64,000 nucleotides of DNA from an uncultured delta proteobacterium. Lineage in GTDB: Bacteria > Myxococcota_A > Polyangia > Polyangiales > Houyiibacteriaceae. The position numbers and the translations under genes were made by a program. Numbering within the stretch: the stretch's first letter is position 1; every line of letters starts with the position of its first letter. The notes beneath the pieces were generated by a model that was not told the origin of the DNA, ran no database searches, and saw only the letters and a program-made list of their open reading frames with translations. Below are positions 3,133 through 62,573 of this stretch, in pieces. Where the stretch lies: contig CAWFPD010000010.1 in assembly GCA_963817725.1 (NCBI GenBank), positions 413,104 to 477,103 on the forward strand, given 5' to 3'.

Positions 3133-5687
3133 GTTCAACGCTTGCAGAAACGACCATCAGCCTCGAGCAGGCGGAAACCAGACGCAACGGAAGACCTCCG
3201 TCGCCTGTGCGGCCGGTCCCGTCGCCCAGTCACGGTCTCGGCCTCGCGATCTCTCGCGCAGGGTCTCGTATCCCACCACTATGGCCGCTCAAGAACTTCG
3301 TCGCCGTCAATCCATTCTTGGGACTCGCGTCGCAGAGGTTCGAGGAAGCCTGTCAGACGATGAAACGCGTGACGGGCGCACGGATGCTCCTGCCCCGGCA
3401 CCGCTACCGAACGCTGATCGCGGCAGGCCGGATCACCCAGGATGATCTGCGCGAGGCCCTAAAATTGGTGCGGAACGTGACCGGCACACCGACAAGCCTC
3501 TCCGATCTAAACGAGGCGGTCGACGACGAGCCGGAATACGTCGACGCGGCATTCACGACCGTGACCGAGACTCTAGATCGTGTTCACGGCCTCGAGACCG
3601 ACCTCCTGATGGTCGGCGAGATCTCGAAATGGTGCGCGGCCTACTGGGACGAGGGGCAAGCGGCATGGACCATGCCCTGGCGACGGCTTCCCTTCTATGC
3701 GGCGTGGCGCGCCTCGACTTCCCTCGACCGAACCGCGGAGGTCATGGGTTTCGCAGGGTTTCGAGAGGCGCTTGCGAGCCTTCCCGATGATCCTGTCGCG
3801 ACGATCGAGATGGTGGTCGACGCTCTCGGGCTTCCCGCCGATGTGCTCGAGGGCTACCTTCACCGCGCACTGTTCAGCGTCCGAGGCTGGGCTTCCTACG
3901 CCCGATACCTCGGCTGGTTTCAGGAGCTCGAAGGGCAGGACGACGACACGGTGATCCAAGTCTTGGCCGTGCGTCTAGCGTGGGACTACGCACTCTACAC
4001 GCTGCATCGTGAGGCGACCTTTCGCAGCGCCTGGCAGGAGTCGGTCGTCACGATGCAAGGCGTCGTGTCGAACCACGACCAGGATCGGGATCTTCTCGTC
4101 GACGCGATTTTGCAAAGCGCGCTCGAAGCGTCGTATAGGCGCGCGCTCACGGAGGCCCTTGCAAACCCTCCCGAAACGTCGCGCACTCCGGAATCGCGAC
4201 CTCCGCTCCAAATGGCGTTCTGTATCGACGTTCGGTCGGAGGTCTTCCGCCGGGTCCTCGAAAAGGTGGCGCCTCAGGCGGAGACGATCGGATTCGCTGG
4301 GTTCTTCGGTTTCCCCCTCGAGTACGTTCCCATCGGTAAGACGCGTGGGCAGGCACACTGTCCCGTTCTCTTGACCCCGAAGTTCGTGGTGCCGGAAGCG
4401 GTTGCGGGCGCGAATGACGATGAGACGAAGGAGATTCTCGGGCTTCGACTGCTGCGACGTCGGGCTTCCAAAACGTGGAAGTCTTTCAAGAGCTCAGCCG
4501 TATCTTCGTTCGTATTCGTCGAGACAGCAGGGCTTGCCTTCGCAGCGAAGCTGATCAGCGACGCCACGGGCACCACTCGCACGGTGACGCATCCGAGCGC
4601 GGACGGACTCGATGCGAAGACTGTTTCCCGCCTGGCGCCCGACATCGAACCGGGCGTGCTTGGCACTCGAAAAACCGGTCTCGGCGACGAGGAGCGGATC
4701 CAGGTCGCGGAAAGCGCCTTGAGAGCGATGTCCCTGACGCGCGATTTCGCGCGACTGGTCGTGTTTGCCGGACATGGGAGCACGACGGTCAACAACCCGC
4801 ACGCCTCCGGGTACGACTGTGGCGCGTGTGGAGGTAACCCCGGGGATGCGAATGCGAGGGTTGCAGCATTGGTCCTCAACGATGAGCAGGTCCGCGTTGG
4901 GCTCCGACAACGTGGAATCGACATTCCCGACGACACCTGGTTCGTCGGGGCCTTGCACGACACGACGACCGACGAAATCCGAGTCTTCGACCGGGAGCGC
5001 GTTCCCGAGTCTCATCTCGGAGATCTGCAAAGTCTCGATGCCTGGGTCGAGCGGGCGTCATCGTTGGCACGCCTCGAACGCTCGGCTCTACTCAATACGG
5101 GCTCTGGAAACGTCGAAGAGAGAGTCATCGCGCGGAGTCGCGATTGGTCGCAGGTGCGACCCGAATGGGGCCTCGCGCGCAACGCGGCATTCATCGCTGC
5201 GCCACGAGCCCGGACCCGGGGGATCGACCTCGAAGGTCGCGTGTTCCTCCACGATTACGACTCGCGTCAGGATTCCGACTGGAGCGTGCTCGAGTCGATT
5301 CTCACCGCCCCCGTCGTCGTCGCAACTTGGATCAATCTTCAGTACTACGGCTCGGCGGTCGATCGAGAGGCCTTCAGCTCCGGCAACAAAGTGCTTCACA
5401 ACGTAGTCGGGACGCTAGGTGTTCTCGAGGGCAATGGGGGAGACTTGAGGGTGGGCCTTCCGTGGCAGTCCATCCATGACGGGCACCGCCTGGTTCACGA
5501 ACCCCTCCGGCTCAACGTTCTCATAGAGGCTCCAACCGATCGAATCGACGCGGTTCTCGAGAAGCACGCCAACGTCCGCGAGCTGGTCGACAACGGTTGG
5601 TTGCACCTGCTGGCCCTGGGCGACGGTCACGACGCGTACTTGCGGGATCCGATCGAAGGCCATTGGCTTCCCGTGGCCCAGGGCTGA
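3129..5687 (+). CDS. dabA: DUF2309 protein, DabA/MpsB-type inorganic carbon transporter subunit
   Basis: 852 aa. It shows the DUF2309 hallmarks: N-terminal WPLKNFVAVNPFLG, the beta-carbonic-anhydrase-like ligand motif FCIDVRSE, and HGSTTVNNPHASGYDCGACGG. It is paired with a NuoL-like gene, as in DAB/MpsAB systems. Confidence 0.85.
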   Translation: MSSTLAETTISLEQAETRRNGRPPSPVRPVPSPSHGLGLAISRAGSRIPPLWPLKNFVAVNPFLGLASQRFEEACQTMKRVTGARMLLPRHRYRTLIAAGRITQDDLREALKLVRNVTGTPTSLSDLNEAVDDEPEYVDAAFTTVTETLDRVHGLETDLLMVGEISKWCAAYWDEGQAAWTMPWRRLPFYAAWRASTSLDRTAEVMGFAGFREALASLPDDPVATIEMVVDALGLPADVLEGYLHRALFSVRGWASYARYLGWFQELEGQDDDTVIQVLAVRLAWDYALYTLHREATFRSAWQESVVTMQGVVSNHDQDRDLLVDAILQSALEASYRRALTEALANPPETSRTPESRPPLQMAFCIDVRSEVFRRVLEKVAPQAETIGFAGFFGFPLEYVPIGKTRGQAHCPVLLTPKFVVPEAVAGANDDETKEILGLRLLRRRASKTWKSFKSSAVSSFVFVETAGLAFAAKLISDATGTTRTVTHPSADGLDAKTVSRLAPDIEPGVLGTRKTGLGDEERIQVAESALRAMSLTRDFARLVVFAGHGSTTVNNPHASGYDCGACGGNPGDANARVAALVLNDEQVRVGLRQRGIDIPDDTWFVGALHDTTTDEIRVFDRERVPESHLGDLQSLDAWVERASSLARLERSALLNTGSGNVEERVIARSRDWSQVRPEWGLARNAAFIAAPRARTRGIDLEGRVFLHDYDSRQDSDWSVLESILTAPVVVATWINLQYYGSAVDREAFSSGNKVLHNVVGTLGVLEGNGGDLRVGLPWQSIHDGHRLVHEPLRLNVLIEAPTDRIDAVLEKHANVRELVDNGWLHLLALGDGHDAYLRDPIEGHWLPVAQG

Positions 5688-6676: not shown

Positions 6677-6795
<119 letters not shown>

Positions 6796-6925
6796 CCGTA
6801 GAAAGTTTCTCTTCACCGCTTTGTGAGCGGATCAGAAGCAAGTTCGAGCGTCCGTTTTGATGGAACGTCTCGAGCTCTTCCTTCCAACCCTGACCTCGAG
6901 CCACGTACGAAACGTGTCTTAGAAG

Positions 6926-9927
<3,002 letters not shown>

Positions 9928-9977
9928 TTGCTCCTAAGACGCATTTCGTCCTCAGGCTTCGACAAATCGCCGATCCG

Positions 9978-10047
9978 CCGCTTACCTCCTCGGTCGCTCC
10001 GCTGCGAGGTACTGTAGTACCTCTCACTTCGCTTCCTGCGGGGGCGC
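9978..10047. repeat. Spacer hairpin module, copy A (between tRNA-Ala and 23S)
   Basis: Plus strand GCTTACCTCCTCGGTCGCTCCGCTGCGAGGTACTGTAGTACCTCTCACTTCGCTTCCTGCGGGGGCGC. It contains the perfect hairpin GAGGTAC-TGTA-GTACCTC. Confidence 0.7.
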
Positions 10048-10232
10048 TGGCGCCTCGACGATTTCTCTTCGCCTAAGGGTGGTGGCGTTACCAAACGCGA
10101 ATATTTGGGATACCACCGTGTGGTCTGTCACGACGGAAGTTGTGACGGACCACGCTCGCAACTCGAGGCCAGGGTTCGAAAGAAGAGCCTGGCCACAGTC
10201 GCGGCTAGAAAGAGAATTTTCTACTTTCTTCA

Positions 10233-10246
10233 GTTGTCAAAGAGCT
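10233..10246 (-). promoter_or_regulatory. boxA-like antitermination element (spacer, upstream of 23S)
   Basis: The minus strand reads AGCTCTTTGACAAC, resembling the E. coli rrn boxA GCTCTTTAACAA. Confidence 0.55.
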
Positions 10247-10409
10247 GCGAGAATCGAGCTTTGAATCTTGATTGCTCGGGTCGATGGCGCGCGTTTGTCG
10301 CGTCGCCGACCGGAACGATCAAGAGTGGTTCGTCACGAGGTTTTTGGCAAGTCGCCTCATCACTGTCGAGTGACTCATCTCGGACCCGGGGGTGGCGGGC
10401 GTGACTCGG

Positions 10410-10482
10410 TGGAGCTGAGGGGGATCGAACCCCTGACCTCCGGCTTGCAAAGCCGGCGCTCTCCCAGCTGAGCTACAGCCCC
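10410..10482 (-). tRNA. tRNA-Ala (anticodon UGC)
   Basis: The reverse complement GGGGCTGTAGCTCAGCTGGGAGAGCGCCGGCTTTGCAAGCCGGAGGTCAGGGGTTCGATCCCCCTCAGCTCCA folds as a cloverleaf. The anticodon loop is CTTTGCAAG and the G3:U70 alanine identity pair is present. CCA is not encoded. Confidence 0.95.
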
Positions 10483-10511
10483 TTGGCTTTCGTCCCAGCT
10501 CCGGCACCTGG

Positions 10512-10582
10512 CCGGCTTACTCCCATCGTCGCTTCGCTGCGAGGTACTTGAGTACCTCTCACTTCGCTCCTCCGGGAGACGC
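10512..10582. repeat. Spacer hairpin module, copy B (between tRNA-Ile and tRNA-Ala)
   Basis: Plus strand CCGGCTTACTCCCATCGTCGCTTCGCTGCGAGGTACTTGAGTACCTCTCACTTCGCTCCTCCGGGAGACGC. It has the same orientation as copy A, with hairpin GAGGTAC-TTGA-GTACCTC. Confidence 0.7.
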
Positions 10583-10701
10583 TCGCCCATGCACCGAATC
10601 TGGAACGAAATCCATTCCTTGGAATGGAGGCATGGGAAGCCTGGGCATCTTGTCTCGGACACATGGTCCGGGCGCAGGGTTCTTGGGGTCAGGTCCGAGC
10701 G

Positions 10702-10770
10702 GCGCCCCCGCAGACCCGGAGTGAGAGCTACATCGGTAGCTCGCAGCGGAGGGTCGAGGAGGTAAGCCGG
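10702..10770. repeat. Spacer hairpin module, copy C (inverted relative to A and B)
   Basis: Its reverse complement is CCGGCTTACCTCCTCGACCCTCCGCTGCGAGCTACCGATGTAGCTCTCACTCCGGGTCTGCGGGGGCGC. This is colinear with copy A, and the hairpin arms are changed in a compensatory way (GAGCTAC…GTAGCTC). Confidence 0.7.
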
Positions 10771-10794
10771 AGCTGGCGCAAAAGGACAAGCCGG

Positions 10795-10868
<74 letters not shown>

Positions 10869-11106: not shown

Positions 11107-12291
11107 TCACGCATCGTTCCGGTACATCGTGACCACGCAGGCACCGCCGAGGCCCAGATTGTGCTGGAGCGCGATCCGCGCACCCTCCACCTGCCGGCGA
11201 TCGGCTTGCCCGCGGAGTTGCCACACGAGCTCGGTGCACTGGGCTAGCCCGGTGGCGCCGAGCGGATGTCCCTTGGAAAGCAGACCGCCGGAAGGATTGG
11301 TGACGTACTTGCCGCCGTACGTGTTGTCGCCTTCCTCGATGAATTTCTCGGCGTCGCCCGGTGCACACAGTCCCAGCGCTTCATAGGTGAGCAGCTCGTT
11401 GGCCGTGAAGCAATCGTGCAGCTCGACCACATCGACGTCCTCGGGGCCGATACCGGTCTCTTCGTAGACCAAGTCCGCGGCCTGCTTCGCCATGTCGAAG
11501 CCGACCATCTTGATCATGCTCTGCGGCTCGAAGCTCGAAGAGAAGTCCGTAGTCATCGCCTGGCCGGCAATCTGAACGAGGTCGCTCTTGCCGTGCTTCT
11601 TCGCAAAGTCCTCCGAGCAAAGCACCGCGGCGGCAGCGCCACAGGTCGGAGGGCAGCACTGATAGCGAGTCAGCGGCTCGAACACCTGCGGTGCGCGCAT
11701 CACATCCTCGAGTGAAAGCTCATCGGTGAAAATCGCGTAGGGATTCTTGGCTGCGTGCTTGCGAGCTTTGACAGAGATCTTGGCAAACGTCTCCGGCTTG
11801 GTCCCGTGATCTTTGGCATACTCACGCCCTGCCCCACCGAACATCTGAGCGGCCACCGGCGCAGGCGCGAAACCCTGCACGTCGTTCATCACCTGCACGT
11901 GTTGGACGAGCGGTGTAATCCGATCGGTGTATTTGGATCCGAGCGCGCCCTTTTCCATCTTTTCAAAGCCCACGGCAATCACGCATTCCGCGAGACCGCC
12001 CTCGATCGCCTGCCGCGCAAGCATGAGCGCGGTGGAGCCAGTGGAGCAGTTGTTGTTGACGTTGTAGATGGGAATGCCCGTGACGCCGACGCGATACAAA
12101 GCGGCCTGTCCACAAGTGCTGTCACCAAACACGTAACCGGCATAGGCTTGCTCGACCTCGTCGTACGGAATGCCGGCGTCCTCGAGCGCGGCGCGCGCGG
12201 CGTTGGCGCCCATGACGTCGTACTCCTCACTCGTGCCGGGCTTTGCAAACCTGATCATCCCGACACCCAGCACGTTGACTTTTCGCTTCAT
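11107..12291 (-). CDS. SCPx-type (SCP2-thiolase, 'lipid-transfer protein') 3-ketoacyl-CoA thiolase
   Basis: The start is taken at [12 protein letters not shown], which has GGAG upstream. There are long runs that I recall as near-identical to the animal SCPx thiolase domain: [84 protein letters not shown]. There is no SCP2 domain. Confidence 0.85.
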
Positions 12292-12354
12292 GTTCCTTCT
12301 CTCCTGCGCGCAAGGATTGCCGGCCGTACGAGGAGCGGCCAGCCGTACTTGGGC

Positions 12355-12383
12355 TTGACACTGTATGTAACGTTCGTTACAGG
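12355..12383 (+). promoter_or_regulatory. Candidate promoter plus palindromic TetR-type operator of the enoyl-CoA hydratase operon
   Basis: TTGACA (12355-12360), 17-nt spacer, TACAGG. The spacer contains the perfect inverted repeat TGTAAC-GTTC-GTTACA (12366-12381). GGAG lies 7 nt before the ATG at 12417. Confidence 0.4.
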
Positions 12384-12416
12384 ACTCGAACAAGAGCCCG
12401 AACGCGGAGAAGCTAC

Positions 12417-13217
12417 ATGACTGAGCCCCATTTCCTCTACGAAAAACGTGGCCACCTGGCGATTTGCACGTTCAACCGCCCAGAAAAGAAGAATGCGTTG
12501 AGCATCGAGATGCTGGTGCGGATGGCCGACGCCTGGGATGAGGCTGACGGCGACCACGACGTGCGCGCCATCATCCTCACGGGGGCTAGCGGGGTGTTTT
12601 GTGCCGGCAGCGATCTCGGTGCGATGAAGTCGGGTCAGTGGGACGCCGGCGATCAGTGGCTTCAGCGTATGAAGCAAGACCCCGAGCTTCACTGGAAAGC
12701 GCTGCTGCTCCGTTACCTCACCAAGAAACCCCTCATTGCGGCTGTAGAAGGGTACGCGCTGGCGGGAGGAACCGAGATCCTTCAGGGGACCGACATTCGG
12801 GTCGCGGGACAAGGGGCCGTCTTCGGCGTCACGGAGGTGCAGCTCGGTCTGTTTCCATTGGGCGGCTCCAGCGTTCGGCTTCGCCGGCAGATCCCCTACA
12901 CCATCGCGGCGGAAATGCTTCTGGCGGGCAGGAGGCTGAACGCCCAAGAGGCGCTTCACTACGGCCTGATCGGGCACGTTACTCCGGAGGGGCAAGCCCT
13001 CGACAAGGCGATCGAGATCGGAGAGCAGATCGCAGCCAACGGCCCCGTCGCCGTACAGGCGGTCAAGCACTCGCTCGTCGAAACCGACGGTGTGCCGGCC
13101 AAAGAAGCGGTCACTCGCTCGTTGGAGATCGGACAACCCGTATTCAGGACGAAGGACGCCATCGAGGGCCCGACCGCCTTCATGGAAAAGCGAAAGCCGA
13201 ACTTTCAGGGCGCTTGA
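12417..13217 (+). CDS. Enoyl-CoA hydratase/isomerase (crotonase) family protein
   Basis: 266 aa with crotonase-fold motifs ([31 protein letters not shown]). Confidence 0.85.
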
Positions 13218-13852
13218 TGACGCGTGCGGAACCGGCGCAGCGCAGCAGCGGAACCCGAGAGGTCATACTCGAAGCCGCGGAGCGTCTGTTCGCCGAGCGT
13301 GGGTTTGCGGCCACGAGCGTGCGCGACATCGTTCGTGACGCCGGGACCTCCGCACCGAGCCTCTACCACTTCTTCGGGAGCAAGGAAAATCTGGTCGTCG
13401 AGCTCGTGGCGGATCGGCACGCAGCGTATTGCAGCGCTCTCGAGGCCGACCTCGAGCTGGCCGACACGGTCTTCGACGTTTGCCAGCGGTTCGTCCGATT
13501 CGTGCTCACCAACATGAGCAAAAGACCAAACACCGCGAAATTCATCTTGGGTGTGATGTTCGGGCCTCAGCAAGACGTACCGGAAAAGGCAGTGGGTGAA
13601 ACGATGGTTCGTTCCCAGGAGATCTTGCAGTGGCGGATGCGAGAGGTGTCGACCGGAATCTCCGAGGCTCGCCTCGTCTTTGCGCGTATGATGCTCGTGG
13701 GCATGGTCACGCCCGCCGTATTGATGTTTCTCACCTCGGGCGTACAAACCTTTTCGCCGAAGCTGCCAGCTTGTATCGCCCATCGAGTCGTCGACATGCT
13801 GGCCGACTCCCATCCCATCTGCGCTTGGCCGACGGTGAGCCTGAGTTCATGA
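13217..13852 (+). CDS. TetR/AcrR family transcriptional regulator
   Basis: The start MTRAEP overlaps the upstream stop (TGATG). The HTH region is REVILEAAERLFAERGFAATSVRDIVRDAGTSAPSLYHFFGSKENL. The longer 417-aa ORF in the track is an upstream read-through. Confidence 0.85.
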   Translation: MTRAEPAQRSSGTREVILEAAERLFAERGFAATSVRDIVRDAGTSAPSLYHFFGSKENLVVELVADRHAAYCSALEADLELADTVFDVCQRFVRFVLTNMSKRPNTAKFILGVMFGPQQDVPEKAVGETMVRSQEILQWRMREVSTGISEARLVFARMMLVGMVTPAVLMFLTSGVQTFSPKLPACIAHRVVDMLADSHPICAWPTVSLSS

Positions 13853-13856
13853 GGAG

Positions 13857-14780
13857 ATGATGGCCTCGCCTGTATCGGAACCGGTGTTTGTTCGATTCGA
13901 GCTGCCCAATGGCATGTCGATTGCGGCCGAAGCGCAAGGCGATCCGGACAGCCAGCCGGTGCTCTTCTTGCACGGGGGCGGCCAAACACGGCATGCCTGG
14001 GGAGGAAGCGCAGAGGCCCTGGCCAAAGCGGGATTCTACGCGATCTGCATGGACCACCGCGGCCACGGACAGAGCGGGTGGGCCGTCCACGATCAATACA
14101 AGCTCGACCATTTCGTCGAGGACCTGAGGGGCGTCCTCGCGCAATTGCACGAAAAGCCCATCTTGGTGGGCGCGTCACTAGGTGGAATCACGGCGCTTCT
14201 TGCCGAGACTGGCCAACGCGAATCGATCGCCAAAGCCGTGATTCTGGTGGACGTGACGCCGCGCTTGGAGACCGAAGGCGTCGACCGGATCATCGCATTC
14301 ATGAGAGGCGGCACCGAAGGGTTTGCATCGCTCGAAGAAGCGGCAGACTCGATCGCTCGATACCTACCGCACAGGGAGCGCCCGAAAGACCTGTCGGGCC
14401 TGGCCAAGAACCTTCGCCTGATGGACGATGGCCGCTACTACTGGCACTGGGATCCCGCGATGCTGAGAACTTGGGAAAGGGACAAGTACACCGAGGACGA
14501 TGATCTCGAGCTCAAGGAACGTCTCTCCAAGGTCCGAAATCTCAGTATTCCTACCTTGTTGATCCGCGGGCGCTTGAGCGACATCGTCTCCGCGGACACT
14601 GCGACCGAATTCCTCCAAATGGTGCCGCATGCGGAGTACGTGGACCTCGCAGATGCCCATCACATGGTCGCGGGCGACCGAAACGATGCATTCACCGACG
14701 CGATCCTTCAATTCCTGTTGAAACATTTTGCGCCGGCGCTGCACGCGGACGAAGACCGATCAAAAAGGATTTCTCAATGA
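13857..14780 (+). CDS. Alpha/beta-fold hydrolase
   Basis: 307 aa with HGGGQTRHAW, the nucleophile elbow GASLGG and a C-terminal DAHHM histidine motif. Confidence 0.8.
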   Translation: MMASPVSEPVFVRFELPNGMSIAAEAQGDPDSQPVLFLHGGGQTRHAWGGSAEALAKAGFYAICMDHRGHGQSGWAVHDQYKLDHFVEDLRGVLAQLHEKPILVGASLGGITALLAETGQRESIAKAVILVDVTPRLETEGVDRIIAFMRGGTEGFASLEEAADSIARYLPHRERPKDLSGLAKNLRLMDDGRYYWHWDPAMLRTWERDKYTEDDDLELKERLSKVRNLSIPTLLIRGRLSDIVSADTATEFLQMVPHAEYVDLADAHHMVAGDRNDAFTDAILQFLLKHFAPALHADEDRSKRISQ

Positions 14781-16357
14781 ATCATCCGAGACTTTTCGAC
14801 ATGCCCTTGCTGCCCCATCTGATCATCGACGGGCTCAACCGCTATGACGACCGGCCCTTTTTGTTTCTCGGCGACCAGACGATTACGTATGCTCAGGTGC
14901 GTTCGCATGCGAGCTGCTTTGCGCAAGCTCTCGAATCGAAGGGCGTCCTCAAGGGCTCGCGAACGGCCGTCCTGTCGGCGAACCGACCTGAAGTTCTCTA
15001 CAACCTGTGCGCCAACATGTTGATCGGATCGTGCAACACCCCGCTCCATCCGCTCGGTTCCGCAAACGACCAGGCATACGTCCTGCAAGACGCCAAGATC
15101 GAGACGCTCGTATACGACCCTACCGTTTTCGAGGCGCGGGCCGCCGAGCTCAAAGCGAAGGTGCCGGGTTTGAAGAACCTGCTCGGCTTTGGAACCACGA
15201 AGGCCGGCGAAGATCTGAATGCGCTCGCGGCGACTTTCGAGCCCAAGCCACTGGTCGCACCGGACATCGGGGCGAACGACCTCAACACGATCGTCTACAC
15301 CGGGGGCACCACGGGCCGGCCCAAAGGCGTGCGCCAACCGTATCGCTCCGCGGCGTACATGACGATGATTCAAATGGCCGAGTGGGAATGGCCCAAGGAA
15401 ATGCGGTTTCTCATCGCGACCCCGCTGTCGCATGCCGCCGCAGCGTTCGTGGTGCCGACGCTGCAGGCCGGAGGAGCCTTCGTGGCGCTGCAGGGCTTCA
15501 CGCCGGACTTGTTCTTTGACGCCATCGAAAAGCACCAGATCACGGCGACCTTTCTGGTGCCGGTCATGATCTATCCGCTCCTCGATCATCCGCGGGCCAG
15601 CACGGCCGACCTCGCGAGCCTAGAGACGCTGTTCTACGGCGCAGCGCCCATGAGCCCCACCCGACTCCGCGAGGGCGTCGAGAAATGGGGCCCCATTTTC
15701 TTTCAGTGCTTTGGGCAATCGGAGGCGCCGATGGCGCTGACACACCTGAAGAAAGAAGAGCACGACTTGTCGAAACCGGAACGGTTTGCATCGTGTGGTC
15801 GCCCGAGCCCATGGGTGCACCTGGCGTTGCTCGGTGAAGACAATCGGCCGGTCGCGGAAGGAGAAGCCGGGGAGATTTGCGTCCGCGCACCGTTGGTGAT
15901 GGAGGGCTACAACGGGCTTCCCGCCGAGACGGAGGAAGCGTTCGCGGGTGGGTGGCTCCATACCGGCGACGTGGGCCGCTTCGACAGCGAGGGATACCTC
16001 TACATCGTGGATAGGAAGAAGGACATGATCGTCACGGGTGGCTTCAACGTCTTTCCACGAGAGATCGAAGATGCGATCTCCGCGCATCCCGCCGTGGCCC
16101 AGGTGGCCGTCATCGGAGTTCCCGATGAGCGATGGGGGGAGGCAGTCAAGGCGGTCGTCATCGTTCGCCAGGGGCATGAGGGAAGCGATGCCCTCGCAGC
16201 CGAGCTCATCGCGGCCGTCAAAGATGCCAAGGGGTCCGTACAGGCCCCGAAATCGATCGATTTCGTCTCCTCAATCCCTCTCTCGCCGCTCGGCAAGCCG
16301 GACAAAAAGACGCTTCGCAAACAGTATTGGGGCGAGCAGACTCGCGGAGTGAACTGA
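14777..16357 (+). CDS. AMP-dependent acyl-CoA synthetase/ligase
   Basis: 526 aa with the AMP-binding motifs YTGGTTGRPKGV, GWLHTGDVG and the C-terminal PLSPLGKPDKK. The ATGA start overlaps the upstream gene. Confidence 0.88.
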   Translation: MNHPRLFDMPLLPHLIIDGLNRYDDRPFLFLGDQTITYAQVRSHASCFAQALESKGVLKGSRTAVLSANRPEVLYNLCANMLIGSCNTPLHPLGSANDQAYVLQDAKIETLVYDPTVFEARAAELKAKVPGLKNLLGFGTTKAGEDLNALAATFEPKPLVAPDIGANDLNTIVYTGGTTGRPKGVRQPYRSAAYMTMIQMAEWEWPKEMRFLIATPLSHAAAAFVVPTLQAGGAFVALQGFTPDLFFDAIEKHQITATFLVPVMIYPLLDHPRASTADLASLETLFYGAAPMSPTRLREGVEKWGPIFFQCFGQSEAPMALTHLKKEEHDLSKPERFASCGRPSPWVHLALLGEDNRPVAEGEAGEICVRAPLVMEGYNGLPAETEEAFAGGWLHTGDVGRFDSEGYLYIVDRKKDMIVTGGFNVFPREIEDAISAHPAVAQVAVIGVPDERWGEAVKAVVIVRQGHEGSDALAAELIAAVKDAKGSVQAPKSIDFVSSIPLSPLGKPDKKTLRKQYWGEQTRGVN

Positions 16358-16358
16358 C

Positions 16359-17189
16359 ATGGAAAAGAGAACGGCGCTCGTCACCGGCGCGGGAGGAGGG
16401 CTAGGCCACGCAACCGCCGAGCGTCTTCTGATGAACGGGTGGAAGGTGTTCGTGGCCGACGTCAACCGCGATCTGCTTCGGACCTCGACCCACGACCCCG
16501 ACGCCGTGCCCATCGTCATGGACGTAACCGACAGCGAAAGCATCCAAAGCGCCTACGATGCCATCGCTGGTCAGACGGATCACTTGGACGGCGTGGTCAA
16601 TTTTGCAGGCATCTTGGGCGTCGGATCCCTGACCGACATTCCCGAAGAACGCCTCGCACGCATTCTCGACGTGAACGTCATGGGCACCTATCGGGTCAAC
16701 AAGCAGTTTTTGCCGATGGTCGAGGCAGCACGGGGTCGCATCGTCAACATCAGCTCCGAAACCGGATGGCAGAGCGCTGCGCCCTTCAACGGCCCTTATG
16801 CCATGAGCAAGCACGCGATCGAGGCCTACTCCACCGCGCTTCGACGGGAGCTGGCCCTCCTGGGGATCAAGGTGATCACGATTCAACCAGGACCCTTTCG
16901 TACCGGCATGGTCGAAGGCATCGAACGAGCATTCACCCAAGCGGAAGCCGAGACGACGAGATTCGCGCAGGTCATTCGCAAGCTCAAGACGTTAGCGGCC
17001 AAACAAATCAACTCCGCGCATGACCCGGGAATCGTAGCCGAAATCGTGGAGAGGGCGCTGACCGTGACCCGGCCCAAACCCGTGTATTCGGTGAAACCCG
17101 ATCCGTTGCGGTCGTCGCTCGAGCACCTACCACGACGTGCGGTCGATCATGTGTACGTCACGGTTCTCCGGCGCGCGAACAAGGGGTGA
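16359..17189 (+). CDS. Short-chain dehydrogenase/reductase (SDR)
   Basis: 276 aa with TGAGGGLG cofactor-binding and YAMSKHA catalytic motifs. Confidence 0.85.
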   Translation: MEKRTALVTGAGGGLGHATAERLLMNGWKVFVADVNRDLLRTSTHDPDAVPIVMDVTDSESIQSAYDAIAGQTDHLDGVVNFAGILGVGSLTDIPEERLARILDVNVMGTYRVNKQFLPMVEAARGRIVNISSETGWQSAAPFNGPYAMSKHAIEAYSTALRRELALLGIKVITIQPGPFRTGMVEGIERAFTQAEAETTRFAQVIRKLKTLAAKQINSAHDPGIVAEIVERALTVTRPKPVYSVKPDPLRSSLEHLPRRAVDHVYVTVLRRANKG

Positions 17190-17195
17190 GCTGAC

Positions 17196-17696
17196 ATGAG
17201 CGGCGACATGGTGAACATCAAACCCAAGCCCGAAGGGCTGGACAAGCCGTATGTGAGCAAGATCATCCGTCTCATGTCCAAGGTCAACGTCGCTGTATAC
17301 CGATGGACGGGCGGGCTATTGGGCTCGAAGTGGAGAGTCGGAAGCGCATTTCCGTGGGGCATACCCATTCTGCTTCTGACCACGATCGGGCGAAAAAGCG
17401 GTCAGCCTCGGACCGCACCGCTGCTATTCATCGAAAACGGCGAGCGCATCATCGTCGTTGCGTCGCAGGGCGGGCTTCCCAAGGACCCTCTCTGGTACGA
17501 AAACCTTCGAGCCAATCCGGACTGCGAAGTCCAGATCAAGCGCCGGAAAATCGAGATGCGGGCACGCACGGCGTCCGCTGAGGAGCGGGACCGCCTTTGG
17601 CCCAAGCTCGTGGCGCACTATCCGGATTTCGCCAGTTACGAGACTTGGACCGACCGGATCATCCCCGTGGTCATCCTCGAGCCGATCGCTTCTTAG
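17196..17696 (+). CDS. Nitroreductase-family deazaflavin (F420)-dependent oxidoreductase-like protein (DUF385/Ddn family)
   Basis: 166 aa. The pattern NVAVYRWTGG…LLLTTIGRKSGQPRTAPL…VVASQGG.PKDPLWYENLRANP…LWPKLVAHYPDFASY is typical of the family. Confidence 0.75.
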   Translation: MSGDMVNIKPKPEGLDKPYVSKIIRLMSKVNVAVYRWTGGLLGSKWRVGSAFPWGIPILLLTTIGRKSGQPRTAPLLFIENGERIIVVASQGGLPKDPLWYENLRANPDCEVQIKRRKIEMRARTASAEERDRLWPKLVAHYPDFASYETWTDRIIPVVILEPIAS

Positions 17697-18001
17697 TCGT
17701 CGCAGATCTTGAGAGTGAGCCGGGTCGCCGGCGCATCCACGATCCGGATCTGGCAACTGAGGCGGACTTTGTCAGGCGTGTCGCCAAAGATTTCCAGAAC
17801 CTCGAGCTCGTCCTCGTCTGGAGGAGAAAGAGCTTGACCGCCCTCGACGACCTCGACTCGGCAGGTTCCGCAGGTCGCCGAGCGGCAGGAGTAAGGCACT
17901 TCGGCGGCGGGATTGGCATCGGTGATGTCCATGATGGTCTCACCAGGCCGGGCCTCCACTTCGAAACCTGCAGGCTCGAATCGCACTCGAATCGTAGTCA
18001 T
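17693..18001 (-). CDS. Plant-type [2Fe-2S] ferredoxin
   Basis: 102 aa with the cluster ligands C-RSAT-C-GT-C…C (YSCRSATCGTCRVEV…RLSCQ). The start overlaps the P450 stop (ATGA). Confidence 0.88.
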   Translation of the reverse strand: MTTIRVRFEPAGFEVEARPGETIMDITDANPAAEVPYSCRSATCGTCRVEVVEGGQALSPPDEDELEVLEIFGDTPDKVRLSCQIRIVDAPATRLTLKICDD

Positions 18002-19224
18002 GCCGTGATGTGGATTGGAATCTTCGTAAACCCGCGGGTAAATGCGGAGTGCCGACGATGCGCGTTGTCCCAGTCGATCTGCAGGCGCTCGCCTATGCGC
18101 GCGCCCATCTCTTCGAAGTAGATGCGCACCATCAGGCGCGCCACGTGCGCCCCGATGCAGAAGTGAGGGCCTTGGGCGAAGGATAGGTGCCGGTCTACCT
18201 CACGATGGATGTCGAGCTCGTCCGCATCGTCGCCCCAATGGCGCGGATCGCGATTGCCTGAGGCGTAGAGATTGTGGACCTTGCTCCCGGACGGGATCGT
18301 GGTCCCCTGGAGCTCGACGCTCTCGGTCGTGGTGCGCGACAACCCCTGCACCACCGAGTCGATGCGAAGGAGCTCTTCGATCGCGTTGGGGATGGTCGAA
18401 GGGTCTTCCATCATCTCACGCCGCTGATCGGGGTAGTCCTCGAGCCATCTCATCGAATTGCCGATCAGGTTCGTCGTGGTGTCGTTTCCGCCGGCGATCA
18501 TCACGAAGCAGAATCCGAGAATGTCCCAATCGCTCAATCGATCGCCATCGATTTGGGCCTGCGTGAGCTTGCTGATCATATCGTCGGTGGGCTCGGAACG
18601 CCGCGCTCGGCACATCGCTCCGAAGTACTCGACCAGTCCCTGCACGGCGCCTATTGCTTGCTGCAAATCCAAATCGAAATCCGCCGAAGCCGAGGTGATC
18701 GCATCGGACCACGGGTCGAATCTTTCGCGATCCTCGGGAGGCACCCCCAGCAGATTGGCCACAACCATCGTGGGGAGCGGCGAGGCGATGGATTCGATGA
18801 GATCGACCGGCTCCCCGTCTGCCACCTTGCGCTTCATGCTCTCCACGTGTTCGACGACGAACTGGCGAATCGTCGGCTCGAGCGCCTTGACCGTCTCCGG
18901 CGTGAACGCTTTCGTGATCAATCGGCGCAATCGCGTATGGTCCGGCGGGTCCATCATGATGAAGGTCGGCGGAAGGCCGAGTTGGCTGATCTCGTCCTTG
19001 GCAGGCGTGAGCCCTTGCGCTGAGGAAAAGAGCCGAGGCTTGCGGAGTGCGTGAAAGATATCGTCGTAGCGAGACAGAACGTAAAAGTCCATCCGCTGGT
19101 TGTAATAGACGGGGTGGTCGTTTCGGAGCCGTTCATAGAACGGATAAGGATCGGCGATCACGTCGGGGTCGAACGGATCGTAGACCGGGTCGTACATCGA
19201 TCCGAGCGTTGGCGAGAGCGCCAT
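17998..19224 (-). CDS. Cytochrome P450 (class I, ferredoxin-dependent type)
   Basis: The start is taken at MALSPTLGSMYDP, giving 408 aa. It has the I-helix IAGGNDTT, ELLR (ExxR) and the heme loop FAQGPHFCIGAHVAR. Only this part of the 774-aa track ORF is P450-like. Confidence 0.88.
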   Translation of the reverse strand: MALSPTLGSMYDPVYDPFDPDVIADPYPFYERLRNDHPVYYNQRMDFYVLSRYDDIFHALRKPRLFSSAQGLTPAKDEISQLGLPPTFIMMDPPDHTRLRRLITKAFTPETVKALEPTIRQFVVEHVESMKRKVADGEPVDLIESIASPLPTMVVANLLGVPPEDRERFDPWSDAITSASADFDLDLQQAIGAVQGLVEYFGAMCRARRSEPTDDMISKLTQAQIDGDRLSDWDILGFCFVMIAGGNDTTTNLIGNSMRWLEDYPDQRREMMEDPSTIPNAIEELLRIDSVVQGLSRTTTESVELQGTTIPSGSKVHNLYASGNRDPRHWGDDADELDIHREVDRHLSFAQGPHFCIGAHVARLMVRIYFEEMGARIGERLQIDWDNAHRRHSAFTRGFTKIPIHITA

Positions 19225-19229
19225 GCAGG

Positions 19230-20531
19230 TCAACCCGGGAAGCGACTTCCGTCGCGCGGCACTCTGGTGCTGATGCGGCGAACCAGCTCGGGCCAATGAA
19301 CCGTATCCAAGGCGACGAATGGTTTGCCCGAGTTCATGAATGCAACGGCCAAATCCCGTTCCGGGTCGGCCCACGCCAAGATGTTGCTCAAGCCCACATG
19401 GCCGAAGGCCTTGCCACACCAAGCCCCATAGAGACCCACTGGGTCCGTGCCCAGCATGAAACCCATCGAATAGGACATGGGCAAGAGGATCATGCGATCG
19501 ACCTGCCAGGAGGTCTGCGGCTCGATCGCCCGGCGCACCGTCGAAACCGAGAAAATTCGCTTGCCTCCCAAGGTGCCGCCTGAAAGCAGCAGCTCGAAAA
19601 AGCGGCAGATGTCGTCGGGCGATCCCATGAGATTGGCGGATGGAATCACCGCCGTGCGGAAGCGGGGATCGTTCGAAAGCTCGATCAACTTCTCGACGGA
19701 AACTCCAAGAGCCTTCTGAAAGATGTCCTTGAGCGGCCAGATCAGCTTCGGTCCGGTGCATGCGTCGATGGCAACCTCGCCGAGCCGCTCCGGAGGCACG
19801 CCATAGTTGAAGTGGTTCATGCCGAGGGGCTCTGCGATCTCTCGGTCGAGAAACTCTCTGATACCGACGCCGGCCACGCGCCGAATCAGCTCTGCAAAGA
19901 TGAAGCCGCTGGTGACTGCGTGATACGCGGGAACGGTCCCCGGTCGATAGGCGGGCTCGAGGTCGTAGATCATCTCCAAGATCCGTTCCGGTTCCCGCAA
20001 GAGGTCCAAATCGGCCACGCCCGGAGGCGCCGCCGGAATGCCCGCCCGGTGGGTGAGTAGATCCCGTATGGTGATTCGGTCCTTGCGTTTGCGCCCGAAC
20101 TCCGGAATGAACGTGCTCACCGGCTCGTCCACATGCAGCAAGTCTCGCTGGGCCAGCAGGTGGACGAGCATGGCTGTGACGGCCTTCGAGCCAGAAAAAA
20201 AGTTGAACAGCGTGCGAGGCGTGGCCGGCACCAGCGCGGCGCCCCGGGAATCGTTGGGAGCGTTTCCCCGGGCATGCCCGATGGTGCGATCGAGGATGAC
20301 CTCCCCGCGTCTTCGGATGCACAAACCCAGCGCAGGGTGAAAACCCGTTCTATAGAAGTTAACGACCTCGTCCCAAATCGCCTCGACGTCGTCAGAACGC
20401 AGCCCCACCGATTCTGGATGCACCTCCGGGATGCCGCGTGCCGTCACCTGCTCGGGGTCGAAGACGCGAACTCGCCTCGATGAAAGACCACGTAGTTGCC
20501 ATCGATGCGAGCCAGTCCGGGCACGTCTCAT
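19230..20531 (-). CDS. Beta-lactamase-fold serine hydrolase (class C/EstB-like esterase or acyltransferase family)
   Basis: 433 aa with the S-x-x-K motif in FFSGSKAVTAML, followed by LLTHRAGIP. The start overlaps the upstream P450 stop (ATGA). Confidence 0.8.
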   Translation of the reverse strand: MRRARTGSHRWQLRGLSSRRVRVFDPEQVTARGIPEVHPESVGLRSDDVEAIWDEVVNFYRTGFHPALGLCIRRRGEVILDRTIGHARGNAPNDSRGAALVPATPRTLFNFFSGSKAVTAMLVHLLAQRDLLHVDEPVSTFIPEFGRKRKDRITIRDLLTHRAGIPAAPPGVADLDLLREPERILEMIYDLEPAYRPGTVPAYHAVTSGFIFAELIRRVAGVGIREFLDREIAEPLGMNHFNYGVPPERLGEVAIDACTGPKLIWPLKDIFQKALGVSVEKLIELSNDPRFRTAVIPSANLMGSPDDICRFFELLLSGGTLGGKRIFSVSTVRRAIEPQTSWQVDRMILLPMSYSMGFMLGTDPVGLYGAWCGKAFGHVGLSNILAWADPERDLAVAFMNSGKPFVALDTVHWPELVRRISTRVPRDGSRFPG

Positions 20532-21919
20532 GAAGAAGCGCTTTTGCGAAACCGCACGTCCGTCGGCATCCCGCGCGCACCCGGGTGCATCGAAAGCTCG
20601 GTCACGAAATCAGGCTCGAAGCCTTCGGGGACGTTCGGCTCGACCCGTTGCAGGAGCGTCGCGAGGATCATGCGCATTTCCATCATCGCGAACTGCTTGC
20701 CGAGACATACACGCGGACCTCCGGCAAACGGCGTGTAGGCACCCCTGGGCAGACTTCGTTCGAACTCCCGTGTCCAGCGCTCGGGACGGAACTCGTCCGG
20801 GCCGTCGTAGTACTTGGGGTTCCGTCCCATCGCGATGTGGCTGATCGTGATCGTCTGCCCCTTTTTGATGTCGTAGCCTTCGATGACGAGATCGCGCTGC
20901 GCTTGGCGGGCATAGGCCCAGACCGAAGGGAGGAGGCGGAGCGACTCCTTCACCACCATTTCGAGATACGGAAGGCTCGGAAGATCGTCGACCTCGGCAC
21001 GCCGATCGCCGAGCACGCGGTCGAGCTCTTCGCGCATCTTGGCAACCTTGCCAGGGTGCCTCGCCAGCAAGTACCAAGTCCAGGTCAGCGCGTGCGCGGT
21101 GGTCTCGTGCCCCGCAAAAATAAGGGTCATCGCCTCGTCACGAAGCTGCTGATCGGACATGCGGCCCTGCTCGTCTTCGACGAAGACCATGTGAGAAAAC
21201 AGATCGCCGCGGTCCTTCTGATTGGTGAGCCGATCTTGGTGGACGCGTCGAATGATCTGCTCGATTTTGGTGATGGCGCGCTTCTTGCGGCGATTGTCCG
21301 CCGTGGGCCACCAGTCCGGTCGTGGAATCATCTTGTCTGCATCGGTTACCAAGATCTCGCTGACCTCTCCAATGGCATCGCGGATGGTTTTCGAGTCCTC
21401 TTTCCCAATGTCGATGTCGAACAGCGTGCTAGCGACGACCTCGAGAGCCAGCGCGTTGAGCTCGACGCGCATGTCTCTGCGCTCGCCTTCTTGCCAACGG
21501 TCGATCATTCGTTCGGTGAACTCGACCATCGTCGGTGCATAGGCGTCGACGCGCTTCTTGTGAAACCCGGGCATGATGAGCTTGTGCTGACGCTTCCAAG
21601 ACTCGCCGTCGTTCGGGACCAGGCCGTTTCCGAGAAACGGCTTCCACATCGCCTTGATGTAATCGGGTTTGTGGAAGTCGGCCCAATACGTGACGTTGAT
21701 CGCGTTGACCACCGCCGGATCGCGCACGCAAAGAAGGTCTCGCACCAGCGCCCGCGCGACGAAGACATCGCCGTACTCGGCATGCCCTTCGATCAGAAAC
21801 CCGGAGCGGTCCCTGGAGAGGTCGAACAGACAACCCCAGAGCCAATGGCCCTTCATCCGGGGGACGGGCCGGGCCGTGAGCGAGCCCCCACTCGTTTGCG
21901 CTGCGGCTTCCGCGGTCAT
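20528..21919 (-). CDS. Cytochrome P450 (E-class)
   Basis: The start is taken at MTAEAAAQ, giving 463 aa, with GAGGGG upstream. It has the I-helix FAGHETTA, ESLRL (ExxR), PERW and the heme loop FAGGPRVCLGKQFA. Confidence 0.88.
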   Translation of the reverse strand: MTAEAAAQTSGGSLTARPVPRMKGHWLWGCLFDLSRDRSGFLIEGHAEYGDVFVARALVRDLLCVRDPAVVNAINVTYWADFHKPDYIKAMWKPFLGNGLVPNDGESWKRQHKLIMPGFHKKRVDAYAPTMVEFTERMIDRWQEGERRDMRVELNALALEVVASTLFDIDIGKEDSKTIRDAIGEVSEILVTDADKMIPRPDWWPTADNRRKKRAITKIEQIIRRVHQDRLTNQKDRGDLFSHMVFVEDEQGRMSDQQLRDEAMTLIFAGHETTAHALTWTWYLLARHPGKVAKMREELDRVLGDRRAEVDDLPSLPYLEMVVKESLRLLPSVWAYARQAQRDLVIEGYDIKKGQTITISHIAMGRNPKYYDGPDEFRPERWTREFERSLPRGAYTPFAGGPRVCLGKQFAMMEMRMILATLLQRVEPNVPEGFEPDFVTELSMHPGARGMPTDVRFRKSASS

Positions 21920-47257: not shown

Positions 47258-47260
47258 GTT

Positions 47261-47935: not shown

Positions 47936-47963
47936 GGGAGCTTCCGGATGATCATGTTACCAC

Positions 47964-53257: not shown

Positions 53258-53323
53258 CTGGTTCCTGTAAGTCGCCGAATCCATTGACAGCTCTTGGCCG
53301 GAAGGCTAGGAACGAAAAACAGA

Positions 53324-56509: not shown

Positions 56510-56518
56510 CCACCGTCT

Positions 56519-57358: not shown

Positions 57359-57359
57359 T

Positions 57360-58265: not shown

Positions 58266-58324
58266 TTGCTTAGCCTCGGCGCGCATCATAGTACGGAGCC
58301 GCCATCTGGCTATGGAGAAACTCG

Positions 58325-62561: not shown

Positions 62562-62573
62562 GAGGCGTTCATT

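Follow-up and report, generated by a model that had tools for sequence, protein, structure and literature searches.

Animal SCPx, the eukaryotic counterpart of the thiolase described here, cleaves 2-methyl-branched and bile-acid intermediates (PMC3406046, PMC7682436). SCP2-thiolases are marked by an HDCF signature instead of NEAF and by the lack of the CxGGGxG cysteine motif; their type-1 group is also present in bacteria, with one type-1 member listed for Mycobacterium tuberculosis (PMC7682436). The enoyl-coenzyme A (CoA) hydratase EchA19 is given a role in the breakdown of the cholesterol side chain in two papers (PMC6273163, PMC8204306), and a 2021 review lists the Ddn-like FDOR-A reductases from Actinobacteria and Chloroflexi (PMC8498797). 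In the literature, no report of a characterized bacterial SCPx-type (type-1) thiolase was found, and nothing directly relevant on steroid degradation by myxobacteria or on a peroxisome link. The present analysis concerns a 64,000-nt stretch (the window; all coordinates are window positions) of a metagenome-assembled genome (MAG) of the Polyangiales (Myxococcota), in which an SCPx-type thiolase gene is divergent from a six-gene operon that includes its own TetR-family regulator. The locus is probably a TetR-repressed catabolic cluster of uncultured Polyangiales for a hydrophobic, possibly methyl-branched or bulky, carboxylic acid. An earlier interpretation made from the letters alone (the sequence-only reading) had implied an actinobacterial frame of Ltp, KstR, and Ddn, which does not apply to this host.

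The six genes of the operon encode an enoyl-CoA hydratase (ech), the regulator (tetR), an alpha/beta-fold hydrolase (abh), an acyl-CoA synthetase (acs), a short-chain dehydrogenase/reductase (SDR; sdr), and a Ddn-like reductase (fdor) (Table 1). The tight junctions that had been described were found throughout: in order, the first pair of genes overlaps by 1 nt (TGATG), the second is 4 nt apart, the third overlaps by 4 nt (ATGA), and the last two are separated by 1 and 6 nt. Terminator-like sites found by a consensus scan numbered 7 against 6.6 expected, which is no excess, and all lay on the opposite strand. Family searches, in which scores in bits were compared with curated NCBIfam cut-offs and Pfam domains were scanned on about 49 open reading frames (ORFs) of the window, bore out all six gene identities, and the enzyme assignments hold at the family level. 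The hydratase scored above the cut-off of NF005864/PRK07799 (367 bits; cut-off, 316) and below that of the EchA19 equivalog NF051848 (340.5 bits; cut-off, 400), with EchA19 of Mycobacterium marinum and of M. tuberculosis as its best solved relatives (4F47 and 6WYI; ∼280 bits). The ligase scored below the FadD8 equivalog NF004838 (651 bits; cut-off, 875), and its closest solved relative was M. tuberculosis FadD8 (8IVI; 549 bits); against the 651 bits for FadD8, the steroid-CoA ligase CasG reached 243 bits. The product of fdor gave 143.9 bits against a cut-off of 22 for PF04075 and 123.3 bits against 46 for TIGR00026, and its best solved relative was M. tuberculosis Ddn (3R5P/3R5L/3R5R; ∼135 bits). 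By analogy with its actinobacterial relatives (PMC8498797), this enzyme could reduce an activated C=C bond or a quinone. It is clearly a Ddn-like FDOR-A protein in a member of the Myxococcota, and a second copy lies near the cluster of one relative (L087:19235-19672; L numbers designate the related loci introduced below).

Table 1. Features of the thiolase/operon locus and of the adjoining convergent cluster, in window positions
Feature	Position	Strand	Basis
SCP2-thiolase type-1 ("lipid-transfer protein"), 394 aa	11107..12291	-	NF006102; 6HSJ match; 59.0% zebrafish identity; tree
Divergent control region, 125 bp, common to thiolase and operon	12292..12416	.	three conserved elements
Putative -35, TTGACA	12355..12360	+	CTTGAC 85-100% conserved in 26 aligned loci; 5 nt upstream of palindrome
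Putative TetR operator, TGTAACG-TT-CGTTACA	12366..12381	.	perfect inverted repeat, conserved in related loci
Putative -10, TACAGG	12378..12383	+	17 nt after -35; overlaps right operator arm; read from aligned sequences
Ribosome-binding site of crotonase gene, GGAGAAG	12406..12412	+	conserved
Crotonase-fold enoyl-CoA hydratase (ech), EchA19-like	12417..13217	+	ECH_1; NF005864/PRK07799; 4F47, 6WYI
TetR-family regulator (tetR), 211 aa, second gene of operon	13217..13852	+	PF00440/TetR_N; fold model
Alpha/beta-fold hydrolase (abh)	13857..14780 (start possibly 13860)	+	Abhydrolase_1; no specific family at cut-off
Acyl-CoA synthetase (acs), FadD8-like	14777..16357	+	AMP-binding; 8IVI match
Classical SDR (sdr), generic	16359..17189	+	adh_short; best solved relatives ∼88 bits
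Ddn-like FDOR-A split-barrel reductase (fdor)	17196..17696	+	PF04075 (F420H2_quin_red); TIGR00026; Ddn structures
2Fe-2S ferredoxin, last gene of convergent cluster	17693..18001	-	PF00111; overlaps FDOR stop by 4 nt
Cytochrome P450 (P450a), CYP130-like	17998..19224	-	CYP130 314 bits; CYP125 ancestor 232; CYP124 205
Beta-lactamase-fold esterase, LipE-like	19230..20408 (alternative start: 19230-20531)	-	LipE 332 bits vs cut-off 750
Cytochrome P450 (P450b), CYP102/CYP97/CYP3-like class	20528..21919	-	family/structure matches

A profile of 21 TetR orthologues retrieved 80 loci from a species-representative genome collection, about 38 of which carried a TetR at least 54% identical to that of the window; two of the loci, L001 and L002, are duplicates of the window's own. 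Gene order in these loci was mapped by tblastn with the window proteins. The order ech-tetR-abh-(acs)-sdr-fdor was kept in nearly all of the ∼38 species-level loci, at identities of 80 to 92% for the hydratase, 84 to 92% for the ligase, and 54 to 93% for TetR. The close relatives were all uncultured Myxococcota, named as Polyangiales, Sandaracinaceae, Polyangiaceae, and "Myxococcales," and the record names of the recovered relatives point to soils, sediments, and engineered systems. TetR orthologues above about 55% identity came from uncultured Myxococcota only.

The operon and the thiolase gene share a 125-bp intergenic region between their two start codons, as had been reported, and its only conserved elements are the thiolase ribosome-binding site, a block comprising the -35 and the palindrome, and the ech ribosome-binding site. 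The perfect palindrome that had been seen at a TTGACA promoter is present, although its arms are better given as 7 nt (TGTAACG/CGTTACA) around a 2-nt spacer. Each of 36 related loci (L001 and L002 counted) held a single exact copy of the 16-mer TGTAACGTTCGTTA[CT]A, which was upstream of ech in every ech-bearing locus and preceded tetR in L012 and L034, two loci that gave no ech match. Wherever a related locus included the start of the first operon gene, this 16-mer stood ∼35 to 45 nt upstream of that start with CTTGAC before it. In an alignment of 28 upstream regions, 26 of them from Myxococcota, the mean column identity was 45%; positions 12365 to 12379 were 100% conserved among the 26 Myxococcota rows, and the flanking columns were mostly 35 to 70% identical. 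Between the operator and the ech start, the ribosome-binding site was conserved and the remainder of the leader was not. Variants of the 16-mer were limited to one mismatch in a Dadabacteria locus and two mismatches in two more distant loci. Since TetR identity spans 93% to 54% across the loci, conservation of the palindrome does not reflect recent common descent, and the operator and -35 block are under strong purifying selection. It is therefore very likely that the palindrome is the TetR operator, and the adjacent TetR is the presumptive binder because it is present in every locus and in view of general knowledge of the family.

Across the loci, the putative promoter follows the pattern TTGAC[AG], 17 nt, TA[TC]A[GT]N, and the -10 of most relatives reads TATAGN, TATATT, or TATAAT. 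The TATA at this position breaks the symmetry of the palindrome by one base in most relatives, whereas the clade of the window has a perfect palindrome and a weaker -10. As the operator fills the spacer between -35 and -10 and overlaps the putative -10, it would occupy a classical repressor position. A search of the window that allowed up to 3 mismatches gave no further copies that might indicate a wider regulon, for example before the P450 cluster, and a search of the related loci that allowed up to 2 mismatches gave no second copies. No structured RNA was detected in the control region, an Rfam scan of the window having returned only rRNA and tRNA. In a Binataceae locus, a palindrome resembling the operator, TGTACCGTTCGGTATA (L082:1301-1316), precedes the start of the TetR tblastn match (query residue 9) by 5 nt. 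The TetR of that locus is 26% identical to that of the window, and the palindrome hints that this operator type may be older than the TetR lineage of the Myxococcota.

The regulator carries an N-terminal helix-turn-helix (HTH) domain (PF00440; E = 1.7e-19). An AlphaFold model from the orthologue alignment has nine helices and an all-helical ligand domain, with a predicted local distance difference test (pLDDT) score of 83, and the nearest folds were those of acyl-CoA-sensing regulators, namely, Bacillus FadR (in structures with stearoyl-CoA and without it), PfmR, and BkaR, at template modeling (TM) scores of ∼0.7. These matches lend soft support to an acyl-CoA as the effector. The proposal that the half-sites of the palindrome are of the KstR type was not sustained. 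The protein scored 19.5 bits against the cut-off of 280 of the KstR model NF033703, KstR and KstR2 in the PDB matched it in the HTH only, and the operator's AAC and GTT half-sites are 4 nt apart. The KstR operator pattern TnnAACnnGTTnnA had zero matches in the whole window. A KstR-type regulator and operator were accordingly rejected on the family score and the empty motif search.

The thiolase ORF is as previously delimited, except that the stated 395 aa are 394 aa plus a stop (395 codons). Pfam recognized Thiolase_N and Thiolase_C_1, and the protein scored 690 bits against the cut-off of 436 of NF006102 (PRK08256, "lipid-transfer protein") over residues 1 to 392 of 394, the second-ranked NCBIfam family reaching 280 bits. 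The nearest solved structures were those of zebrafish SCP2-thiolase type-1 (6HSJ/6HRV; E = 6e-156; residues 2 to 391), and identity to the zebrafish SCPx thiolase domain was 59.0% over 393 aa by BLASTP. Both of the SCPx-like blocks quoted in the sequence-only reading are in the protein, and both align to 6HSJ/6HRV. The nucleophilic Cys lies in NNNCSTGS and the catalytic His in GHPLGATG, two motifs that are identical in the zebrafish enzyme in the 6HSJ alignment. The HDCF signature replaces NEAF, with VVELHDCF aligned to VIELHDCF of 6HSJ, and the cysteine-bearing CxGGGxG is not present, its site reading NLGLGGACV against NIGLGGAVV in zebrafish. No SCP2 domain was found by Pfam, and the protein stops at residue 394 with the thiolase fold.

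The likeness to animal SCPx, the headline of the sequence-only reading, proved to be common to the family. A homologue search gave at least 8,000 matches, as many as the candidates scored; the 120 matches listed were all at least 75% identical (75 to 93%), and the named sources among them were Myxococcota MAGs. The exact protein is also encoded on a contig of assembly GCA_049288685.1. When clustered at 50% identity, the family fell into very few clusters, and the nearest representative was a Variovorax-type "lipid-transfer protein" at 66 to 68% identity. Eukaryotic SCPx sequences from a beetle, a protist, a chytrid, and ascomycetes were 48 to 53% identical to the window thiolase. Seven other Myxococcota homologues were 58.6 to 61.9% identical to the zebrafish enzyme, level with the window protein, and zebrafish and beetle SCPx share 59.5% identity. 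In a rough neighbor-joining tree (27 sequences, 393 columns, 200 bootstraps), the window thiolase and its close relatives (bootstrap, 100) fell inside a Myxococcota clade (98) that was joined by Variovorax (85), and the eukaryotic SCPx sequences formed a separate group. Thus, of the two findings that were to refute the earlier claim, grouping with ordinary bacterial SCP2-thiolases is seen, but the identity to SCPx is high rather than modest. The likeness is best read as slow evolution of an old family, so that the headline claim of an unusually animal-like thiolase dissolves into a family property, and a tree this rough does not settle the direction of gene donation. Recent capture of the gene from an animal or another eukaryote would account for the near-identical blocks, that is, for the long stretches of identity shared with a fish enzyme at 59% overall, but such an origin is extremely improbable. 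It is opposed by the missing SCP2 domain, by the homologues at 93 to 75% identity across uncultured Myxococcota and at 66 to 68% in Variovorax, by the equal closeness of all Myxococcota homologues to the fish enzyme, and by a GC content of 60 to 62% in the thiolase/operon region that equals that of the surroundings (54 to 64% over the window). On the tree and the uniform identity across Myxococcota, recent transfer from animals was rejected.

Taken together, the family-level gene identities, the placement of the thiolase, and the conserved synteny suggest the following scheme for the proposed catabolic cluster. A TetR dimer would bind the 16-bp operator TGTAACG-TT-CGTTACA between -35 and -10, blocking RNA polymerase and autoregulating the repressor, and an acyl-CoA or the free substrate would release it. 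Because the control region is shared, the thiolase is plausibly coregulated with the operon. The hydrophobic compound would be taken up, possibly through a porin such as the FadL/TodX outer-membrane porin encoded between the FDOR and P450 genes in one relative (L087), and oxidized by the two P450s with the ferredoxin, joined in relatives by a GMC alcohol oxidoreductase. The two hydrolases would cleave esters, the FadD8-like ligase would activate the acid with CoA, and hydration, dehydrogenation, and thiolysis would follow as the final steps, with the divergent thiolase acting on the 3-oxoacyl-CoA. By analogy with animal SCPx, which acts on 2-methyl-branched and bile-acid intermediates (PMC3406046, PMC7682436), and with the mycobacterial hydratase EchA19, the combination of an SCPx-type thiolase and an EchA19-like hydratase would fit acyl chains that are bulky or carry a 2-methyl branch, for example those of isoprenoid acids or of sterol side chains.

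Several observations weigh against this scheme. There is no acyl-CoA dehydrogenase or oxidase in the cluster, which leaves the beta-oxidation cycle incomplete, and a role of the SDR as the 3-hydroxyacyl-CoA dehydrogenase was set aside since it gave only generic SDR matches. The role of the Ddn-like enzyme hinges on the F420 supply of the host, and no F420 biosynthesis genes were noticed within the 64-kb window, which is part of the genome only. With regard to the effector, the fold matches of TetR share 17 to 25% identity at TM ∼0.7, and TetR folds are all alike. Shuffling of the 125-bp region produced a perfect 7+7 inverted repeat (spacer of up to 6 nt) in 4.4% of cases, and over the window as a whole such repeats number 0.15 per 125 bp; the palindrome alone is therefore weak evidence, and it is conservation that lifts it beyond chance. 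The ech promoter was missed by the consensus scan because the -10 of the window's clade, TACAGG, is weak, and the promoter is for that reason read from conservation. For the thiolase, no conserved promoter element of its own is visible in the shared region, and the gene was divergent to the operon in only 8 of about 40 distinct related loci (L003, L005, L012, L023, L025, L030, L087, and L088).

The surroundings of the thiolase vary among the relatives. A fuller form, seen in L023, L025, L087/L088, and partly L012, has the minus-strand thiolase followed by a GMC oxidoreductase and a 3Beta_HSD-family SDR (L087:4134-13908, L023:832-4731, L025:1294-7077, L012:5042-7858). The GMC oxidoreductase is choline-dehydrogenase-like (583 bits; cut-off, 605), and the best NCBIfam match of the SDR is OleD (185 bits; cut-off, 580). 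A 600-aa lipoprotein without known family sometimes comes after this unit. Many other loci lack the thiolase and have the GMC or the SDR gene as the divergent neighbor. The window keeps the thiolase only and has lost the other two genes at this position, its GMC and SDR paralogues being just 30% identical and far off. Elsewhere, a 77%-identical homologue of the thiolase directly follows a TetR gene and an MFE-2-like gene in a Kofleriaceae MAG, and in a Polyangiaceae MAG the homologue is separated from an MFE-2-like gene by 3.5 kb that hold two genes. The MFE-2-like protein has 1,006 aa with SDR, hydratase-2/MaoC, and two SCP2 domains, and it scored 548 bits to Drosophila peroxisomal MFE-2 and 412 and 250 bits to the domains of human HSD17B4. 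Loci with a thiolase and MFE-2 were recorded at L083:2090-7182, L084:2174-7182, L085:2087-7182, and L086:1-7188; the window itself has no MFE-2 homologue. The Kofleriaceae TetR was considered as a relative of the window TetR and dismissed, as its similarity is confined to the HTH and it has a palindrome of its own, ACAGTC..GACTGT.

These contexts raise the possibility that the thiolase is a mere neighbor, working outside the TetR regulon and the operon's pathway, either in a general peroxisome-like branched-chain beta-oxidation or in the thiolase-GMC-SDR unit of the relatives. The 8 of about 40 loci with a divergent thiolase, the GMC or 3-beta-HSD-family gene in its place elsewhere, the homologues beside or near MFE-2-like genes, and the lack of a visible thiolase-specific element all speak for such independence. 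Nevertheless, it is regarded as somewhat doubtful. In all loci that have it, the thiolase is the first gene of the divergent unit at ∼125 bp, even though the TetRs of these loci are only 74% identical, and with the -35/operator block as the sole conserved noncoding element, a promoter for the thiolase could hardly avoid that block. In loci with a divergent GMC gene, moreover, the GMC start codon abuts the -35, and the divergent promoter must therefore overlap the operator. Coregulation of the thiolase with the operon thus appears plausible from the arrangement of the region.

The substrate and direction of the pathway can also be read differently. The sequence-only reading had proposed a module for degradation of sterol or bile-acid side chains, performing one beta-oxidation cycle under a KstR-like repressor, and several features agree with it: among solved structures the hydratase comes closest to EchA19, a hydratase of the cholesterol side chain, animal SCPx cleaves bile-acid intermediates as well as 2-methyl-branched ones, in relatives the thiolase is immediately followed by the GMC oxidoreductase and the 3Beta_HSD-family SDR, P450a has CYP130, CYP125, and CYP124 among its relatives, and HsaD/BphD-like and HsaC/BphC-like genes occur at 56.5 to 58.3 kb of the window. 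The single beta-oxidation cycle is overstated, given the missing acyl-CoA dehydrogenase, the generic SDR, and the EchA19 score of 340 against 400 bits. The ligase is nearest the fatty-acid ligase FadD8 and not CasG, the regulator is not KstR, and the 3-beta-HSD-family proteins score best, and far under cut-off, to OleD. The meta-cleavage hydrolase matched HsaD best at 190 bits against a cut-off of 400, and the extradiol dioxygenase scored higher as BphC (305 bits; cut-off, 366) than as HsaC (237 bits; cut-off, 450), so both are under their cut-offs, and they lie 40 kb away. Among the ∼49 ORFs scanned by Pfam, no acyl-CoA dehydrogenase, MaoC hydratase, or Ltp2-type aldolase family was found; neither was Rieske/KshA or KstD, which ORFs without a Pfam match may still hold, and no family name matched HsaAB, although HsaAB-type families were not specifically searched. 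Because the steroid-family cut-offs were missed, ring-degradation genes were not found in the ∼49 ORFs, and the regulator is not KstR, a sterol substrate is considered unlikely. Very unlikely is a biosynthetic cluster, whether a set of tailoring enzymes for a lipid natural product of myxobacteria or an Ole-like route comprising condensation by a thiolase-superfamily enzyme, a beta-lactone synthetase of the AMP-ligase family, an alpha/beta-hydrolase decarboxylase, and an OleD-type reductase. Myxococcota are rich in secondary metabolism, two P450s are present, and there is a superficial parallel to OleABCD in the thiolase, the alpha/beta hydrolase, the AMP-binding enzyme, and the relatives' 3-beta-HSD-family SDR with OleD as its best NCBIfam match. 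Yet the thiolase is of the degradative SCP2 type and not of the FabH-like condensing type to which OleA presumably belongs, the ligase reaches 549 bits to FadD8 with no OleC among the best 25 of its 107 matches, and no Ole family appears among the best 25 of 28 matches of the hydrolase. The relative's SDR falls far short of the OleD cut-off, and the window's own cluster wholly lacks such an SDR. A FadL/TodX uptake porin in one relative's cluster and the lack of polyketide synthase, nonribosomal peptide synthetase, or terpene synthase genes nearby also oppose biosynthesis, and the Ole-like version was rejected on the family scores.

The operon is met tail to tail by a convergent set consisting of ferredoxin, P450, beta-lactamase-fold esterase, and P450 genes (Table 1), which often follows the operon in the relatives, the ferredoxin gene being kept beside it in many. 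On the other side, directly downstream of the thiolase and on the same strand, lies an array of tRNA-Ile, tRNA-Ala, 23S, and 5S genes without 16S (6678-10868, minus strand). The same 16S-less array is found beside the cluster in four relatives (L005:1-3251, L025:1-965, L031:1219-5339, L087:14242-18002), so that the clade conserves the unlinked rRNA arrangement as well as its position beside the cluster. Further upstream (1516-5687), a DabB/DabA-type pair (a proton-antiporter-like subunit and a PF10070 DabA), which we take to be of the inorganic-carbon pump type, is followed by a PAPS-reductase-family gene. Three adjacent minus-strand genes at 46229-49259 encode a 3Beta_HSD-family SDR (OleD-like; 249 bits, under the cut-off), a PF04116 fatty-acid-hydroxylase-family membrane enzyme, and a PaaE-like FAD/NAD/2Fe-2S reductase; PF04116 presumably also holds sterol C4-methyl oxidases and desaturases, and the trio may be a lipid- or sterol-modifying set. 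A second catabolic block (53294-58289 and 60481-63953) encodes an aldehyde dehydrogenase, a GMC oxidoreductase, the meta-cleavage hydrolase, and the extradiol dioxygenase, followed by a further beta-lactamase-fold esterase and a P450 that resemble the pair in the studied cluster. In one relative, a 544-aa homologue of animal heme peroxidases (PF03098; E = 7e-153) is encoded a few kilobases from the cluster (L024:175-1809).

What is new at this locus is a TetR with its putative operator, a pair confined to one lineage whose phylogenetic footprint is unusually clean, together with a conserved catabolic cluster of the Polyangiales; the proteins and the regulatory logic all belong to known kinds, and current knowledge is not overturned. 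The 211-aa TetR and its 16-bp site, nearly invariant in ∼38 uncultured species, form a well-defined putative regulator/operator pair, and the catabolic cluster that it would control is found in Polyangiales and Sandaracinaceae-type bacteria. The two contexts of the bacterial SCPx-type thiolase, beside the TetR operon and near MFE-2-like genes, offer concrete substrate hypotheses. A broader view, which we hold to be quite improbable, is that uncultured Polyangiales break down methyl-branched isoprenoid or sterol side chains in a peroxisome-like manner. Such a pathway would employ the SCPx-type thiolase, the EchA19-like hydratase, the P450s, a GMC oxidoreductase, a 3-beta-HSD-type oxidoreductase, and a deazaflavin ene-reductase, under the control of a lineage-specific TetR with an invariant operator. 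If this were true, then, together with the thiolase homologues beside or near full MFE-2 genes, it would make Myxococcota, in which sterol synthesis has been reported, a candidate for the bacterial source of the eukaryotic MFE-2/SCPx module or for its sister, and the pathway would be the first for steroid or isoprenoid side chains to be described from bacteria other than Actinobacteria and Proteobacteria. The locus only touches on how bacterial enzymes of branched-chain beta-oxidation relate to the peroxisomal ones.

Compared with animal SCPx, the window thiolase aligns over its full length at 59% identity and keeps the Cys, HDCF, and the GHP histidine, whereas it has neither the C-terminal SCP2 domain nor a peroxisomal targeting signal. 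In animal peroxisomal beta-oxidation of branched-chain and bile-acid substrates, SCPx works alongside MFE-2/HSD17B4. The same thiolase family serves here, and two other Myxococcota families even have a homologue near a full MFE-2 with SCP2 domains, but in the window the thiolase is partnered by a hydratase of the crotonase (hydratase-1) type and a classical SDR instead of MFE-2, and no acyl-CoA oxidase or 2-methylacyl-CoA racemase was seen there. The mycobacterial pathway for the cholesterol side chain (FadD19, EchA19, ChsE, ChsH, Ltp2, and FadA5, under KstR) resembles the locus in its EchA19-like crotonase, ligase, thiolase-superfamily enzyme, P450s, and control by a TetR. It differs in its ChsE-type dehydrogenases, MaoC hydratases, and Ltp2 aldolase, which the locus does not have, as well as in its ring-degradation genes, which were not found here; the ligase of the locus is FadD8-like, the thiolase is of the SCP2 type and not the FadA5 type, and the regulator is not KstR. 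The FDOR-A protein passes the same family models as Ddn and the FDOR-A proteins of Actinobacteria, although the host is a myxobacterium. Finally, set against the acyl-CoA-sensing regulators FadR/YsiA of Bacillus, PfmR of Thermus, BkaR of M. tuberculosis, KstR, and KstR2, the window TetR has a similarity limited to the HTH and a different operator, TGTAACGTTCGTTACA, which fails the KstR pattern, but it is like them in its HTH, in the helical fold of its ligand domain, in the placement of its gene within the operon that it likely regulates, and in a palindrome that overlaps the putative promoter.

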